NCBI GenBank assembly: GCA_963771175.1
Contig: CAVYSY010000010.1
Span: 1-64,000, forward strand
Length of the DNA: 64,000 bases
Source: an uncultured delta proteobacterium
Lineage (GTDB): Bacteria; Myxococcota; Myxococcia; Myxococcales; Myxococcaceae
Reading direction: 5' to 3'
Part shown: in pieces, positions 1 through 8,722 of the stretch
Numbering within the stretch: the first letter of the stretch is position 1
Layout: the number at the start of each line of letters is the position of its first letter
Program-made: the position numbers and the translations under genes
The notes under the pieces: model-generated
The model's database searches: none
What the model saw: only the letters and a program-made list of their open reading frames with translations
What the model was told of the DNA's origin: nothing

Positions 1-174
1 TGAAGGCACAAGGAAAACACAGCCGCCTCAATGCAATGCATTGCCTTCTGGCATGTCTTGCTCTTATTCTTGCCATCGCCGTCGGTCGGGAGGGAAGTGA
101 TTCCTACCACCAACGCGCCCGGTGCCGGATGACCCGGCCTGGGTATTCCCATACCCATAGGAGGGGGACACATC

Positions 175-291
175 ATGACCAACGAGCAGACCACCCAGGA
201 CGTGGAACAGAACCTCACCGAGATGAGCGATGAGGCGCTCGACAACCTCGTCTCCGGCGCGCAGGAACTGAGCAAGTCTCAGTCCTGGTAA
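175..291 (+). CDS. 38-aa putative RiPP precursor peptide (MTNEQTTQDVEQNLTEMSDEALDNLVSGAQELSKSQSW)
   Basis: Translated by hand (shorter than any ORF in the supplied track). ATG at 175, TAA at 289-291, strong SD (AGGAGG) just upstream. Acidic leader EMSDEALDNLVSGA resembles double-glycine-type leaders; C-terminal Trp. Confidence 0.7.
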   Translation: MTNEQTTQDVEQNLTEMSDEALDNLVSGAQELSKSQSW

Positions 292-393
292 GGAAGCCGG
301 GCCCATGGCCTGGAACCCACGGGCGGGCGCACATCCAGCGCCCGCTCGTCGTATTTGGAGCACCCACCGGTGGTGGGTCCGTGAGGGGACACC

Positions 394-1530
394 ATGGCGC
401 ATGCATTGGATGAATATCTGAGGCTCGCCGAGCCCCACCTCCCACCCCACCTCGTCTCTTCCGAAGCGCTGGCCCACATCGGGCGGATTGCCCGACTGCT
501 GCCACCCGTCTCCGCCTCCGGCTTCGAGTGCCAGCTCGGGCGGACGGAGGCCCTGGCCGACTTCGGCGTCCGAATGATCGCCACCGACGGCAGCAGGGCC
601 GTGCTGGCCGGGCGCGAGGATGCAGACTTCACCCTGCCCGCCCCGCTCCGGGCCGACCCCATCTGGGAGCGCCTGCGTCGCTTCGGCGCGCGCTGGGACG
701 AGCCGGGGACGCTGTTGCGCGAGGAGATCCGCGACGTCTTCCTGGAGTTCGACGTCGTCGGCGCACCGCCCGAGGTGCCCATCCCCTCCTTCTTCATCGA
801 GTACGTCGACGCGGCCCACCGGCGCCTGGAGGCGATGGAGGAGTCCCTGGCGCTGCTGTGGGGCGAGCCGCTCGCGCCCGCCGTCCGGGAGCGCGTGGTG
901 GCCTGCCTCGAGGCGCTGCCCCCGGGGGCCCGAGTGTCCGCGGTGGGCGCCATGTTCTCCCGCCGCTTCGACGGGGTGCGGCTGTGCTTCCACGGCCTGG
1001 GCATGGACACACTGCCCGACTACCTGAGCCGCATCGGCTGGTCCGGAGACCGCGCCGGCCTGGAGGTACTGCTCGCCGGGGTGGCCGATCGGGTGGAGCG
1101 CCTGGTGCTGTGCCTCGACGTGGGCGCGACCGTCCTGCCCAAGGTGGGCGTGGAGTGCCACCAGGCGGAGAGCCTGCAGGAGCCCGACGCCGCGCGGTGG
1201 TCCCTGCTGCTGGAGCGGCTCGTCGAGCAGGGCCTGTGTCTGCCGGCCAAGAGAGCCGCCCTGCTCGACTGGCTGGGCAACACCCACGCCCGCTCCCGCC
1301 CCGAGTCCCTCCCCGGCAACCTGCGAGCGCGCTGCGAGGCGATGGGCCCCCAGGCCCTTCCCGTCTTCATGCGGCGCATCAACCACCTCAAGCTCATCCA
1401 CTCGCCAGGCCAGCGGCCCGAGGCCAAGGCCTACTTCGTCCTGCTGCAGCGGTGGCTCGGCTACGACGGACAGCGCAAGCGCTACGTTTTCGGGGATTTC
1501 GATGAGGTCCGGAACGCGCTCCAAGGCTGA
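394..1530 (+). CDS. 378-aa uncharacterised enzyme, possibly a peptide-modifying (prenyltransferase-like) protein
   Basis: Clean ORF with SD GAGGGG and high-GC codon usage. Motif-like blocks GFECQL..ADF, FLEFD, GAMFSR, LDVG..PKVGVEC, NHLKL..KAYF. Function is inferred. Confidence 0.6.
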   Translation: MAHALDEYLRLAEPHLPPHLVSSEALAHIGRIARLLPPVSASGFECQLGRTEALADFGVRMIATDGSRAVLAGREDADFTLPAPLRADPIWERLRRFGARWDEPGTLLREEIRDVFLEFDVVGAPPEVPIPSFFIEYVDAAHRRLEAMEESLALLWGEPLAPAVRERVVACLEALPPGARVSAVGAMFSRRFDGVRLCFHGLGMDTLPDYLSRIGWSGDRAGLEVLLAGVADRVERLVLCLDVGATVLPKVGVECHQAESLQEPDAARWSLLLERLVEQGLCLPAKRAALLDWLGNTHARSRPESLPGNLRARCEAMGPQALPVFMRRINHLKLIHSPGQRPEAKAYFVLLQRWLGYDGQRKRYVFGDFDEVRNALQG

Positions 1531-1621: not shown

Positions 1622-2242
1622 ATGAGCGGTGGGCAAGCCCCCAAGGAAGGAGAACCCAGCATCAGCACGGAGCTGGAGTTGCAGCGGCGGCTCTCCCTGG
1701 CGACTCCGGCGGACACCGTGCGAGGGCTGTCCTTCCACACCGTGATGGAAGCGCTCCGGGCGGACCTCGGGGAGGAGGCGGTGGAGCAGTGCCTCGCGCC
1801 ACGCGCGGAGAAGATCTACCGCAGCTTCTTCTCCTACCCCATCAGTGAGTACCTCCACGTGCTGTACACCGCGGGGTGGATGCTGAGCGAGAAGCACGGC
1901 GGCTTCGAGAACGCCATCCGGCGCATCGGAGCGGGGCTGGCCCCCGGGTTCCTCTCCTCCGTGGTGGGCCGGGCGTTCCTGCTGCTGGCCAAGGACGGCC
2001 CCAAGCAGCTCATCAACAACATGCCAGTGGCCTTCAAGGCCGCGGCGAGCTTCGGCGAGAGCAGCATCACCTGGACGGGGCCGAAGAGCGGCGTCTTCCG
2101 CACGAAGAAGGACTTCCTGCTCTACCTCAACCACGAGGGCGGGATGCTGGGCCTGTTCCGGGCGCTGGGCCTCCAGGGCGCGCGGGTGCACGGCCGGCAG
2201 ACGGGACCCCTCGAGAACGAGGTGGAGTTCTCCTGGGAGTGA
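1622..2242 (+). CDS. DUF2378 / TIGR02265-type myxobacterial paralogous family protein
   Basis: ATPADTVRGL..F, FFSYPI, FLSSVVGR, ASFGE and C-terminal FSWE are typical of this family; start placed at ATG 1622. Confidence 0.75.
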   Translation: MSGGQAPKEGEPSISTELELQRRLSLATPADTVRGLSFHTVMEALRADLGEEAVEQCLAPRAEKIYRSFFSYPISEYLHVLYTAGWMLSEKHGGFENAIRRIGAGLAPGFLSSVVGRAFLLLAKDGPKQLINNMPVAFKAAASFGESSITWTGPKSGVFRTKKDFLLYLNHEGGMLGLFRALGLQGARVHGRQTGPLENEVEFSWE

Positions 2243-2973: not shown

Positions 2974-5176
2974 CTACCCGGCGAGCAGCGCCTGCCGCGG
3001 CCGCACCACCTCGACCGCCGCGGGCAGCGTGAGGGTGATCCGGGTGCCCCGACCCTGGCGACTCTCCGCGCGCAGCGTGCCGCCCAGACTCGTCACGATG
3101 GCATGGCTCACCGACAGCCCCAGGCCCGTGCTCGAGGGGCGAGAGGAGACGAAGGGCTCGAAGATGCGCGAGAGCACCTCCGGAGAAAGGCCCCTGCCCG
3201 TGTCCTGCACCTCCACCACCATCTCCCCCTCCTCGCCGGTGTAGGCGGCCACCCGCAGCACATTGCGCTCGGCGTTCCCCGAGTCCATCGCGTGCACCGC
3301 GTTGAGCAGCAAGTTGATGAAGAGCTGGCTCAGCCGGGCCTCGTCCGCGTCCACCGCCGGCACGTCGTGGAAGTCCTTCTCCAACCGCGCCCGGTGGTTC
3401 AGCTCACCGCGGATGAGCTTCAGCGCGTTCTCCAGCACCGGCTGCACATCCACCCGCGCCCGGTGCTCCGGCGGCTTGCGCGAGAGCGTACGCAGATCCT
3501 GAACGATGTGCTTCAGCCGGTCCGCCCCCTCCGTCGTCTCGGCCAGGGCCTCCAGCACGTCGTCGAACTCCCGCGTCACGGCCTCGCCCCGCTCGCGCAG
3601 CATGTCCCCCAGCCGCTCCAGCTCCTCCCGGGCGTAGGAGAGATTGGCCAGCATGAAGGCCAGCGGGTTGTTCATCTCGTGCCCCACCGCCGCCGCCAGC
3701 GAGCCCAGTGCCGACAGGCGATCCGCCTGGATGAGCCGCGCCTCCATCTGCTTGCGCAGCGTCACGTCCCGGGCGAACACCCGCAGGCCCGGGGGATCCC
3801 AGAGCTGCGCCACCGTCAGCTCCCAGTACCGGCCGTCCAGGTGCACCGTGGGCGCGGGCTCGCCCGAGGGAGCTCCGCGCCAGGCCCACTGCAGCACCGC
3901 CTTCACCATCGGGTGCTGCTCGCCCTGAACCACCAGGTCCGGGAAGGCCTTGTGCGTGGCCGGGTTGGCGTAGCGCAGCTCACCCGCCATGCCCAGCTCC
4001 AGCAGGGGCTCGGGGTGCAGCAGCGGGAAGGAGGCCAGCCGGTACAGCGGCTCCTCCAGCGCGCGCAGCCCGGAGACGTCACGCACCAGCAGGCCCAGGC
4101 GAGAGCCCGTCTCGCCGGGAGCCGGCGCGCACGGAGTCACCTCGGCCGCGTACCAGCGCGTCTGCCCTTCCACCTCCAGCCGGTACTCCAGCCGGCCTCC
4201 CGAGCCGCCGTGGCGCACCGCGCGAGTGAGCGCGAGCAGCGGCTCGCTCGCCTCCGCCCCCAGCACCTGCACCAGCGGCAACCCCTCGGCGCCCGACACG
4301 TCCCGGCCGAAGGCCCTGCCCGTGGGCGACCACAGCCGCCGGCACCGCTCCTCCTCGTCCACCTCCGCCACCACGTACTCGGCGCTGCCCGCCGGCCGTG
4401 CCGAGGGCCTCACCTGCGTGCCCGACGCGAGCACGAAGCCCTCCACCCGGAAGGGCCCCATCAGCATCTCCAGGCCCCCCCCGTCGGTATTCATCCCCGT
4501 GAGGGCGGACACCAGCGCGGCGGCGTCCGCCTCGGACATGCGCTGGGTGAGGATGATGCCGTCGGCGAGCGTGGGCGCGGTGAAGAAGAACGGGAGCAGC
4601 TTGGGCTCCTCGGCCCCCACGTAGGAGGCCAGGGTGGCCCGCATGGCGTGCTCGTCCGGGTGGTTGGAGAAGACGGCGGCCACGTCCGACTCGCCCGCGA
4701 GCACGGCGTTCAGCGCCTTGCGGTAGGTGCCGAGGAAGCGCTGCTCGGAGAAGGCCTCCTCCGGGCACACGCCTCGCGACTCCAGATCTCGCAGGGGCAG
4801 CAGGTGCCCGCCCGTGGAGCGCGGGGCCACCCACGCCACGCGCTTGCCCTTCAACGTCTCCAGCGTGAGGGGCTCGTCCGCCCGGCACACCAGGGCCGAG
4901 TGGTAGCTCCAGCTCCCCGAGCGCACCGCGCGCAGCACCGCCCGCGCCTGGGGCTCGAAGGCGGTGCACTGCTCGGCCGTGCCCCACACCATGTCCACCC
5001 GGCCCGCGGCCAGCTCCACCTCCAGCGCCTCGTAGGTGGGTGCCAGCTCCACCACCACCGGCCTCCCCAGCCGCTCCGAGAGCGCGCGGCCGAAGAGATT
5101 CGACCCGAACGTGCTCCCGCACCTCCCCGAGCGACGGGTAGAGCATGAACCGGATGGGGGTGGTCGACACAGTCAT
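2974..5176 (-). CDS. PhnD/phosphonate-binding-like domain fused to a sensor histidine kinase (one frameshift near 5095)
   Basis: N-terminal binding-domain motifs (YEALEVELAAGRVD, STGGHLLP). H-box VGHEMNNPL, N-box NLLLNA, DTGRG, FEPF, GLGL. The start MTVSTTPIRF lies in another frame. Confidence 0.8.
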
Positions 5177-5983: not shown

Positions 5984-6076
5984 GGGAACACAGCCTAGCA
6001 TAAGCCCCCGGAGCGCCTGACGGCCGACGCGCGACCTTCTGGGGTCCGGGCATTTCTGCGATGCTCCGCCGGGTCC

Positions 6077-8722
6077 ATGAACAACTGGCGATCTCTAGCT
6101 GCGCGTATGGCGGCGGCGTTCCTGCTGCTGTCGTTGTTGGGGGGTCCGACCCTGGCGCTGCTCCTCACCGGGGGCTCACCATGGCAGGGGCAGGCCTCGG
6201 CCCCTCGGAGCGGCGACGACTGGAGCTCGCTGCTGGCGACGGAGAAGGGCTTCTCGCGGAGTCTCGTGCTCTCCGTGGCGCAGGGTCGATTGACGGTGGA
6301 CTTCTCCGGCACGTTCGAGGCCTCCGGCCCCCTCGCCAGGCGCATTTTGGAAGGTGGGCTCGAGGATGAGGACGCCCTGCGCTCCTTCATCGTGGCGGCG
6401 TTCGGCCTCCTGGAGCTGGAAGGCGGTGCCTTCCACGAGGCGACGTACTCGCAACCCCAATGGGAGCTGGTCCCCCAGAGCCAGGCGCTCCACCTCAAAC
6501 TCCAAGCCTGGACACCCGTTGGCTCCACTGTCTCGGGGGAGCTGAAGCGGTCCCCGGACGCGCCCCCGGGTCTCACGCGGGATGAGTTCCGGCTGAACCA
6601 CGCGGGAGGCCGGCGGTTGAGCCTCCTGCCTGTTCCCGACGAGACCTCGAACGAGCATGCCCTGTTGGCTCGACTGTCCAACCCCATCCCCTCCATCAGG
6701 TTCGGTGTCGAGCTCCCGGAAGGTCCGGCGGCGCGGACCCGACTCCTCCTCTGGAATTACGGCGGCGTCACCGCGGTCCCCTTGCTCTACGACTTCCTCA
6801 AGGGCCTCGGCCGGGCGCTGCCCTTCCTGCTGTTCCTCGTGTTCACGAGGGAGCCGGTGCGGGAAGAGGCGGAACGGACGCGGGTGCTCCGCCAGGTCAC
6901 GCTCACCATCATCTACTTCATCGTCCTCCTCTGGCTGCTCACGGGTCTGTTGAAGGCGCTGTACGGATGGCAGCAGATGCGCGAGCTGTCCGCCTGGATT
7001 GAGACCTGGGGGCGAGACGTGTGGGGCGTGGTGCCGCTGACTCCGCTCCTCCCCCGAGCGATCAGCGCCCTGTTCCCGGCGCTCATCGGAGTCATCCTGC
7101 CTGGATTCCTGATGGGAAGACTTCAGGAGGACGCGGTGCGCACGTGGCGGTACACGCCCGCGCGCAAGAGCGTGCTCCTTGGCATGGCCATCTGCGCCAC
7201 CTGCATGGTGGTGGCGGTGCCCGTCTCCTCGGGGTTCCCAGGAAGGCACTGGCTGCCGGTCGGCATGGGCGCGCTCTTCCTGAGCTGGCTGCTGTTCGTC
7301 GCGCTGCTCGGCGCGATGGGCGTGCGCGCCTTCCGCTCCACCACGGCGCTCGTGGCCACGGCCACCCTCGGCATCACGGTGGGGCTGATGGTTCTACCAC
7401 CCCACGTCGCTCCCACCTGGAAGACCGCCGGATGGAAGGGCCTGGACACGGCACTGACGACCGCCGTGCTCCTCGGCCTCGTGATGGCGTATCGCCACTT
7501 CACCACGGCCGCCTCGGGAGGCCCCCCGCCCCAGCTCTCCACCCCAGCCAGGGCGGGAGTGGTGCTCGGATGCGTGGTGCTCGCCTACCCGGTGGCCATG
7601 CCCCAGTGGACGTTCTCCGAGCACGATCTCCTCTCCTTTGTCATGACCTTCAGTTCCTTCCTCGGCTGGTTCTGGCTGGGGGGGGTCCTATGGCTGCTCC
7701 ATTCGCACGGGCGCGATTCCCAGCGAATCGCCGCGATGCCCCGCGCGGTCGGCCTCCTCGCCCTGAGCGCCACCCTATACGCCTACAGCTCGCCGATCTC
7801 CGGAGGCAAGCTCCTCACCTTCCTGATCGGTTGGCTGCTGCTGGATCGCCTCGTGGTGCTGCCGAGCGGCAGGTGGGAAAGCCTCGAACGGCTGCTCCAG
7901 GTGGTGGTGCGGGAGCGCGAGGGGTTGCTCCAGAAGATCCTCGATCTCAACGCACTGGAGAACGCCTATGTCAGCACCCGTCAGAAGGATCGCGAGCGGC
8001 TCAACTCCGGAGAGCTGAAGTTCGACGAGTACCAGAAGAACAACCAGGAGGCCTGGCGCCAGCTCACCGAGGCCCGAGCGGACGCCGCAGTCGAGAATCG
8101 ACCGGCCAAGGAGTTGGTCCTGGCATTCGGACCCGAGCCCACGGCGTGGGGCAACGGGATTCGCGGTGCCACCTTCGGGCTCCTCTTCGCCCTACCCTGG
8201 CTCCTGCTCGCGGCGTGGAGCATCTTCGAGCAGCCGAGATCGCCTCATCCCTATCCCCTCTGGGTCCTCGCCCAGGGCCTGCTGTCCACGCTCCTGCATT
8301 GGACGATCATCGGCTTCCTGTACGGATACTTCTTCCCGTACATCCGGGGCAACAGCGGTCTGCTCAAGAGCTTCTGGATCTTCCTCGCGATCGTGGTGCC
8401 GTTCTCCGTGGTGGCACTGTCGAATGCCTCCACGGCGGACCACGCACGAGCCGTGGGCTTGTGGCTCACCCAGACCCTCATCCAGATCTTCTCGCTCGGC
8501 CTGTTCGCGTTCGACCACGCGACGCTTCGCAAGAGTGGCTTACGGAGCTGGCGCCTGTTGTTCGAGGTGCACGATCTCCCCACGGTCGGCCTCTCGCTAT
8601 CATCCCTGTTCGTGGCCTTCGGGGTCGCGCTGACGACGAGCCTGCAGTCGAGTGCCCCCAGACTGGTGGAGCTCGCCCTGAAGTTCCTGTTGCCCTCGAG
8701 CTCTCGGCTCCTCACCCCCTGA
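6077..8722 (+). CDS. large multi-pass membrane protein (DUF6185-like C-terminus)
   Basis: 881-aa ORF with an N-terminal signal/anchor, many hydrophobic segments, and C-terminal FGPEPTAWGNG...GFLYGYFFPYIRGNSG. Confidence 0.65.
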   Translation: MNNWRSLAARMAAAFLLLSLLGGPTLALLLTGGSPWQGQASAPRSGDDWSSLLATEKGFSRSLVLSVAQGRLTVDFSGTFEASGPLARRILEGGLEDEDALRSFIVAAFGLLELEGGAFHEATYSQPQWELVPQSQALHLKLQAWTPVGSTVSGELKRSPDAPPGLTRDEFRLNHAGGRRLSLLPVPDETSNEHALLARLSNPIPSIRFGVELPEGPAARTRLLLWNYGGVTAVPLLYDFLKGLGRALPFLLFLVFTREPVREEAERTRVLRQVTLTIIYFIVLLWLLTGLLKALYGWQQMRELSAWIETWGRDVWGVVPLTPLLPRAISALFPALIGVILPGFLMGRLQEDAVRTWRYTPARKSVLLGMAICATCMVVAVPVSSGFPGRHWLPVGMGALFLSWLLFVALLGAMGVRAFRSTTALVATATLGITVGLMVLPPHVAPTWKTAGWKGLDTALTTAVLLGLVMAYRHFTTAASGGPPPQLSTPARAGVVLGCVVLAYPVAMPQWTFSEHDLLSFVMTFSSFLGWFWLGGVLWLLHSHGRDSQRIAAMPRAVGLLALSATLYAYSSPISGGKLLTFLIGWLLLDRLVVLPSGRWESLERLLQVVVREREGLLQKILDLNALENAYVSTRQKDRERLNSGELKFDEYQKNNQEAWRQLTEARADAAVENRPAKELVLAFGPEPTAWGNGIRGATFGLLFALPWLLLAAWSIFEQPRSPHPYPLWVLAQGLLSTLLHWTIIGFLYGYFFPYIRGNSGLLKSFWIFLAIVVPFSVVALSNASTADHARAVGLWLTQTLIQIFSLGLFAFDHATLRKSGLRSWRLLFEVHDLPTVGLSLSSLFVAFGVALTTSLQSSAPRLVELALKFLLPSSSRLLTP

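Follow-up and report, generated by a model that had tools for sequence, protein, structure and literature searches.

At the very start of contig C10 of the uncultured myxobacterial genome G000 we found a gene pair that probably belongs to a cassette for a peptide that is made by the ribosome and modified after its translation (RiPP), in which a terpene would be attached to a core tryptophan (Trp). The stretch analysed (G000:C10:1-64000; hereafter the window) comprises 64,000 nucleotides and its first base is the contig end. In its full form the cassette would comprise three genes, for a class II terpene cyclase resembling MstE, for a precursor peptide of 38 aa and for a prenyltransferase of the alpha-beta-beta-alpha (ABBA) type. 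The window carries the precursor and the prenyltransferase only; the cyclase gene is located on the abutting contig C20.

The precursor peptide and the barrel enzyme

The precursor gene (175 to 291, forward strand) was identified by reading the open reading frame (ORF) and by alignment of orthologues. It encodes the 38-aa peptide MTNEQTTQDVEQNLTEMSDEALDNLVSGAQELSKSQSW, which ends on a Trp, and about 10 nt upstream of its ATG a Shine-Dalgarno (SD)-like run, AGGAGGGGG (159 to 167, forward strand), can be read directly. The gene of the 378-aa enzyme (394 to 1530, forward strand) follows after a gap of 102 nt, and the small ORF with a strong SD and an enzyme gene some 100 bp downstream are thus present as the original prediction for this region had described them. 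The same small ORF was found 5' of the enzyme gene in all six orthologous loci (L004-L009; enzymes 66-91% identical), in each case with a purine-rich SD-like run (GGAGG, GGGAGGG or GAGG) before the ATG. The leader block of this peptide group, LTE(M/L)(S/N)DEALD(N/D)L(V/I)SG, is conserved and the N-terminal dozen residues drift. Pairwise differences within the block, from LTE to SG, are distributed over codon positions 1, 2 and 3 as 32, 6 and 92 (92 of 130 at the third position), with 80 synonymous versus 38 non-synonymous codon differences. Since the ORF is kept in six orthologous loci and its leader substitutions are biased towards the third position, the comparison of sequences indicates that it is a real, conserved gene and more than a chance ORF.

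The core of the peptide, (A)QELSKSQSW, is short and free of Cys (orthologue consensus AQELSxxQ(A/S)W). The C-terminal position of the Trp, an element of the original prediction, holds for the window peptide and for L004; the other five orthologues have one more residue (WE or WQ). When the 12 precursors that adjoin members of the enzyme family were aligned, the invariant columns were M1, E16, E20, L22, G28 and W38. Trp is the sole invariant core residue (12 of 12), the cores being otherwise unlike (e.g. KQVSSCCWESC, PSCVCWSGCGS... and SCTWGANCGK), and we infer that this Trp is the acceptor. In sequence the leader is similar to the C-terminal stretch of double-glycine leaders of the NHLP type, in agreement with the double-glycine RiPP leader that had been proposed: the last ~15 leader residues, and only these, align with the NHLP-type precursors of paralogous loci, and the leader end, G(G/A/N/E), looks like a double-glycine site. 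An L(X)4L motif is found as L-SDEA-L (L-NDEA-L in L006) in five of the seven orthologues (L005-L009).

The enzyme, described before as an orphan, turned out to belong to a very large unnamed family: a phmmer search against 1.84 billion representative proteins returned 2771 of them at E<=1e-3, with 477 of these reaching E<=1e-30. It was found in 15 of 101 genomes of the same taxonomic family (G000 counted), and close relatives in Archangium, Vitiosangium, Cystobacter and Corallococcus carry the source annotation 'hypothetical protein'. There is no Pfam or NCBIfam model for the enzyme, a sequence profile search of the PDB with the family yielded no prenyltransferase but only a chance match to a ribosomal protein (E 0.065), and the Atlas comparison gave leads only (0.87-0.88).

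The AlphaFold2 model built on the family alignment (predicted local distance difference test (pLDDT) 96.3, predicted template modelling score (pTM) 0.94) consists of five alpha-beta-beta-alpha units (five times H H E E in the DSSP assignment) that form a ten-stranded antiparallel barrel. Comparison of the model with the PDB by Foldseek resulted in 29 matches at E<=1e-3; among the matches listed all are ABBA prenyltransferases, including NphB/Orf2, DMATS1, IptA, AnaPT, 5- and 6-DMATS and FamD1. The best match according to VIA-align was CymD (6os3_B; Z 17.2, root-mean-square deviation 4.1 Å over 298 residues), accompanied by MpnD (Z 17.2) and PriB (Z 16.4), all three being indole/Trp prenyltransferases. 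In total 122 chains reached Z>=8, and among the matches listed (50) all are prenyltransferases. On the basis of the model the enzyme thus has the ABBA (PT-barrel) prenyltransferase fold, which bears out the barrel that had been proposed for it, no other enzyme class being present among the matches listed. This fold, together with the comparative context given below, supports the annotation as a putative peptide Trp prenyltransferase.

In an alignment of 108 diverse family members the residues E45, D56, E118-F119-D120, R190, R196, D242, E254, K286, R327, H331, K333, K345 and Y347 are nearly invariant. The blocks that had been singled out earlier, FLEFD (E118, F119, D120), LDVG (D242), HLKL (H331, K333) and KAYF (K345, Y347), coincide with the most conserved positions of the family. 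The nearly invariant residues are mostly located on predicted strands and would point into the barrel; R196, R327, K333, K345 and Y347, all on strands, may be the basic and Tyr residues of the lumen that bind the diphosphate. The window enzyme keeps every one of these residues, and both the peptide gene and the enzyme gene are intact. Two other types of chemistry were considered and rejected for this pair. Lanthipeptide, YcaO, radical S-adenosylmethionine (rSAM) and ATP-grasp chemistry was ruled out because no such domains are present (none of these families was matched by the enzyme, as had been noted before), and an all-helical enzyme of the ComQ/PalQ type, like the trans-isoprenyl-diphosphate synthases, because the modelled fold is that of a beta-barrel, with ABBA enzymes as its listed structural matches.

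The upstream cyclase and the homologous loci

In the orthologous 20-kb loci (L022, L023, L024 and L033) a gene encoding a protein of 360-417 aa is followed by the peptide gene, the enzyme gene and a DUF2378 gene in four of four cases, and in all four wide orthologous loci the protein encoded directly 5' of the peptide matches PF13243 (SQHop_cyclase_C) with 50-65 bits, which is above the cut-off. The upstream cyclase matches MstE (E 5e-25) and reads DADST where MstE reads DADTT. The relation to proteins of known structure is even closer: the L033 cyclase matches PDB entry 8paj_A (E 3e-187), the upstream cyclase matches 8pak_A (E 8e-163), and 8pak_A is identical to the L024 cyclase ORF over 361 of 361 residues. 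No mention of 8PAJ or 8PAK was found in the literature searched. A LanC-like role for the alpha-alpha toroid of the cyclase was ruled out, as both Pfam and PDB comparisons place the protein with MstE and the squalene-hopene cyclases (SHC).

In G000 itself the cyclase gene was located at G000:C20:11771-12851 (1501-2581 in locus L034), with 53 nt left before contig C20 ends; RNA sequencing runs contained only small shares of this stretch (0.12 and 0.04). When aligned to L004, the end of C20 and the start of C10 come to lie side by side, and a contig from sequencing run X5 continues from the C20 end directly into the first bases of the window. Judged from these alignments, the gene directly upstream of the precursor is an MstE-like class II terpene cyclase that was cut off by the contig break. 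With the C20 end joined to the window start, the order is cyclase, ~227 nt, peptide, 102 nt and prenyltransferase.

We also searched for precursors at other members of the enzyme family with a hidden Markov model (HMM) of the leader, built from the precursors already found. A precursor with a core Trp was detected beside the enzyme at 10 of the 18 non-own homologue sites scanned, so that the expected conservation of a peptide next to homologous enzymes was recovered at these sites. The surroundings of the paralogues are diverse. Loci L025 and L026 are class II lanthipeptide clusters, in which the enzyme gene is accompanied by genes for LanM, a C39-ABC (ATP-binding cassette) transporter, complete precursors of the NHLP type and a flavin adenine dinucleotide (FAD) oxidase. 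L027 consists of precursor, enzyme and cyclase, L032 contains LanB and a cyclase homologue, and L029 encodes an amine-oxidase-cyclase fusion, two cytochromes P450 and a methyltransferase resembling protein arginine methyltransferases. In total, cyclase homologues were present in 7 of 12 wide loci.

Some further features of these paralogous loci deserve mention. The oxidases of L025 (3649-5088, reverse strand) and L026 (13809-15287, reverse strand) are FAD_binding_4 proteins with a cytokinin-dehydrogenase-like domain, which may act on the prenyl group. In L029 (10784-11211, reverse strand) two small ORFs lie 5' of the paralogous enzyme gene: the first encodes an acidic candidate precursor of 46 aa with a Trp at its end (G+C content at third codon positions 0.91), and the second encodes an NHLP-like peptide of 77 aa that stops where the core would start. 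L028 (9514-11613, reverse strand) encodes a protein of 699 aa with a C-terminal prenyltransferase domain (residues 345-687), the N-terminal 344 aa of which have no Pfam match and no phmmer match to the cyclase.

The connection between the two enzymes is also visible in gene fusions. Among twenty long family members that were scanned, eight carry a C-terminal SQHop_cyclase_C domain. A 2-oxoglutarate (2OG) oxygenase and a methyltransferase were found in three members each and a sulfotransferase in two, and in the other four no further domain was recognised. In the fused Nostoc protein P0133 the N-terminal half (residues 1-375) is 29% identical to the window enzyme (BLASTP E 3e-57; phmmer E 3.4e-44) and the C-terminal half is 31% identical to the upstream cyclase (E 2e-40). 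Relatives of P0133 were found in six cyanobacterial loci, with a Trp-containing Nif11-domain peptide alongside in five of the six. In L037-L041 (around 6001-8530) the fused prenyltransferase-cyclase genes adjoin a Nif11-domain peptide of 72-76 aa with a Trp, and the surroundings of the cyanobacterial fused genes include lasso-peptide-type genes (Asn-synthase-like and PqqD), an HPr-kinase-like gene and a WelO5-like halogenase.

A tree made by a quick method and rooted at its midpoint, which is provisional and has several long branches, places the LanM-linked paralogue L018 as the sister of the orthologue group of the window enzyme (support 99), and the fused proteins form another clade. As the group thus lies outside the fused clade, the pairing of this enzyme with a cyclase seems, on this provisional tree, to have arisen repeatedly.

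Between the peptide and enzyme genes we observed a GC-rich hairpin (CGGGCGGGCGC / GCGCCCGCTCG) with a short T-containing tail (320 to 356, stem 320-348, forward strand), identified by RNA folding and comparison of orthologues. Folding of 289-393 yielded -54.2 kcal/mol (z -2.65), and a consensus stem of 12 pairs is retained in all seven orthologues, with one compensatory pair; the T run 3' of the hairpin is stronger in the relatives than in the window. A simple promoter/terminator scan of 1-2400 returned no sites and did not call the hairpin. The element is probably an attenuator or leaky terminator and may tune the ratio of precursor to enzyme transcript.

Downstream of the enzyme gene, at a distance of 91 nt and in the same direction, lies a DUF2378/TIGR02265 gene (1622 to 2242, forward strand; PF09536 5.3e-34, TIGR02265 3.5e-41), the position of which is kept in all orthologous loci examined (L022, L023, L024 and L033); none was seen in the paralogous loci. 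A sensor histidine kinase gene (2974-5058, reverse strand; Phosphonate-bd, PAS, HisKA and HATPase domains) is convergent to the cassette and was likewise found in the orthologous loci.

Proposed pathway and alternative explanations

The pathway that we consider probable would proceed in four steps. The prenyltransferase would recognise the leader block (M/L-SDEA-L ... L-V/I-S-G) and alkylate the indole of W38 with a polyprenyl diphosphate, the donor most likely being C15 or C20, after which the cyclase would protonate the chain and fold it into a polycyclic terpenoid. Leader removal and export of the product would then fall to functions encoded outside the cassette, for instance a C39-domain transporter. 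A donor of C15 or C20 is suggested by the requirement of class II cyclases for a chain long enough to be cyclised, and by the fact that both MstE and NctPC handle C20. The presence of the cyclase gene makes a cyclised terpenoid a more likely product than a plain lipid.

Several observations weigh against this pathway. At the sequence level, the window enzyme had no match at E<=1 to PF11468 (PTase_Orf2), PF11991 (Trp_DMAT) or PF19156 (DUF5838), and none of the 108 aligned family members matched a prenyltransferase Pfam model. As no named prenyltransferase family is matched by sequence, the assigned function rests on fold and context. The precursor itself deviates from related systems, since the 38-aa peptide lacks an NHLP or Nif11 N-terminal domain such as MppC needs (there was no Pfam or NCBIfam match) and the L(X)4L motif starts with M instead of L (M-SDEA-L) in the window peptide and in L004. 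Moreover, the leader HMM found no precursor at 8 of the 18 homologue sites (L011, L013-L017, L020 and L021; L017 is a contig-end fragment). The sequence to the left of the window, where genes for a protease-transporter, a polyprenyl synthase or a cyclase had been expected, did yield the cyclase, but no protease, exporter or polyprenyl synthase was present in the orthologous loci. Elsewhere in G000 five C39-domain matches were found, three of them in frames of 747-858 aa, and such proteins could act in trans on the product of the cassette.

A further point concerns the cyclase of G000, whose frame is broken: the match on C20 is divided between two frames by one extra base, relative to genome G079, near C20:12499. 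The extra base is absent from the contigs of all four public runs of close relatives that were compared (X1, which is >99% alike, X2, X3 and X5). The cyclisation step may thus be lost in this genome, or the assembly may be wrong. If it is lost, the cassette would be decaying, with the cyclase a frameshifted pseudogene and at most a linear prenylated peptide, or nothing, as its product. We regard this as unlikely, though less so than the other alternatives, since the insertion of one base into a GC-rich run may have arisen in the assembly, none of the runs was established as the source sample, and the neighbouring peptide and enzyme genes show no sign of decay, down to the conserved residues of the barrel.

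It may also be that prenylation takes place elsewhere, on another residue or a terminus of the peptide or on a small aromatic metabolite, in which case the role of the small ORF would be regulatory or unrelated. Other acceptors are known for the ABBA prenyltransferases of RiPPs, among them Ser, Thr, Tyr, Arg, His and termini (PMC12715784). Free Trp or small indoles are the substrates of CymD and the DMATS enzymes, which are closest in fold, and the homologue sites without precursor would fit as well. A choice of another acceptor would leave unexplained why Trp alone is invariant among precursors with such unlike cores, why the leader block is conserved in the manner of a recognition sequence and why paralogues are located inside lanthipeptide clusters, and the candidate precursor of L029 is also Trp-ended; we therefore consider it improbable. 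Still further removed is a non-catalytic barrel that would merely bind the leader or present the substrate to the cyclase or another enzyme. The fusions to methyltransferase, 2OG oxygenase and sulfotransferase domains are what might be expected of a recognition module, and there is no catalytic motif of a named family that can be checked by sequence. The near-invariant charged residues on the strands fit an active site better than a surface, a prenylated substrate is required by the class II cyclase, and the loci encode no second prenyltransferase that could supply it, which makes this explanation very unlikely.

A more far-reaching version of the terpene-on-Trp pathway is that of a free-standing three-gene cassette, in which a Cys-free peptide of 9-11 aa bears a polycyclic terpenoid on its terminal or near-terminal Trp and the leader is read via the short L(X)4L...SG block alone. 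The product might then act as a diffusible signal in the manner of ComX, with the convergent sensor kinase perhaps as its receptor, or the peptide might be a scaffold from which an indole-terpenoid is released. We consider this version speculative, with a low chance of being correct.

Relation to known systems

This kind of pathway has been in print since 2024 (NctPC and MppC: PMC13290415, PMC12715784). The suggestion in the original prediction of a new lipidated peptide was therefore upheld for the Trp prenyltransferase, which is supported, but not for the novelty of the pathway, and the product is more likely to be a cyclised terpenoid. According to PMC13290415, NctPC combines in one protein an MstE-like cyclase and an ABBA-barrel prenyltransferase that has little similarity to the cyanobactin enzymes. 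It transfers a C20 geranylgeranyl group onto Trp, with cyclisation taking place afterwards, a finding credited there to Hubrich et al., Chem 2024. The class of products was named 'steromaze' (PMC13647313). A search for publications on the myxobacterial locus, outside of which lay the full texts of Hubrich et al. 2024 and Hubrich 2026, found none. Reports of terpene-RiPP hybrids with cyclised isoprenoids began in 2024, with fused enzymes that belong to large clusters of many enzymes. In their Chem 2024 report Hubrich et al. are said to describe such maturases as 'commonly' fused and to predict, from genome data, cyclic isoprenoid units in several RiPP families.

The system described here has three features in common with NctPC: an ABBA barrel with little similarity to the cyanobactin prenyltransferases, a class II cyclase resembling MstE and, presumably, Trp as the acceptor. 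The connection runs via P0133, a fused protein of NctPC architecture, which we do not equate with NctPC itself. There are also clear differences: the two activities are encoded by separate genes that flank the precursor gene instead of by one polypeptide, the precursors of the group have 38-39 aa and no Nif11 or NHLP domain, their cores of 9-11 aa are Cys-free, there are no lasso, lanthipeptide or proteusin genes near loci of this type, and in the quick tree the enzyme groups with the LanM-linked paralogue and not with the fused proteins.

A second relative is MppC, the ABBA prenyltransferase of a Nif11-type lanthipeptide cluster, which geranylates C5 of a core Trp, acts only with the leader attached and requires the structured nucleus of the leader as well as an L(X)4L motif (PMC12715784). 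MppC is a soluble enzyme and, like the window enzyme, an ABBA prenyltransferase; MppC modifies the core Trp with the leader attached, as is proposed for the window enzyme, the L(X)4L motif lies in an acidic leader stretch, as does the L-SDEA-L of the orthologues, and the sister paralogue (L018/L025) lies with LanM in a cluster that also encodes a C39-ABC transporter and a precursor of the NHLP type. The window locus differs, in a comparison made by description, in the lack of LanM (in the 20-kb orthologous loci), of a core Cys and of a structured leader nucleus, and the cyclase partner suggests a donor longer than C10.

For the cyclase, the closest relatives are MstE and the monodomain class II terpene cyclases of PDB entries 8PAK and 8PAJ, to which it is connected by sequence match and by the DAD(S/T)T motif. 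MstE reportedly works on a small-molecule meroterpenoid, whereas the presumed substrate here is a prenylated peptide. ComQ/ComX and PalQ resemble what is proposed for the cassette in that a short peptide is prenylated on a Trp in C-terminal or nearly C-terminal position, and PalQ requires a terminal Trp (PMC13290415); ComQ and PalQ are all-helical and trans-isoprenyl-diphosphate-synthase-like, in contrast to the beta-barrel found here. The DMATS/CymD-type and cyanobactin prenyltransferases (PF11991, PF11468 and PF19156) have the PT-barrel fold in common with the window enzyme (Z 14-17), but they act independently of a leader or on free substrates and show no Pfam-level match to the present family (query and 108 members).

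If the proposed pathway is correct, the cassette would be about the simplest natural form of such a system, with a precursor of 38 aa, a transferase of 378 aa and a cyclase of ~355 aa. A crystal structure already exists for a cyclase orthologue, and an intact orthologue of the cassette would be a convenient minimal model system for questions like how a short leader is read by a barrel prenyltransferase, which chain length this enzyme uses and in what way a chain bound to a peptide is taken up by a monodomain cyclase. At the same time, a fold and a likely role have now been assigned to a family of thousands of proteins that lacks a Pfam or NCBIfam model. With its separate enzyme genes, a leader devoid of an NHLP or Nif11 domain, a short Cys-free core and no other maturase, the system looks like a split, minimal-leader and Cys-free relative of the kind known since 2024.

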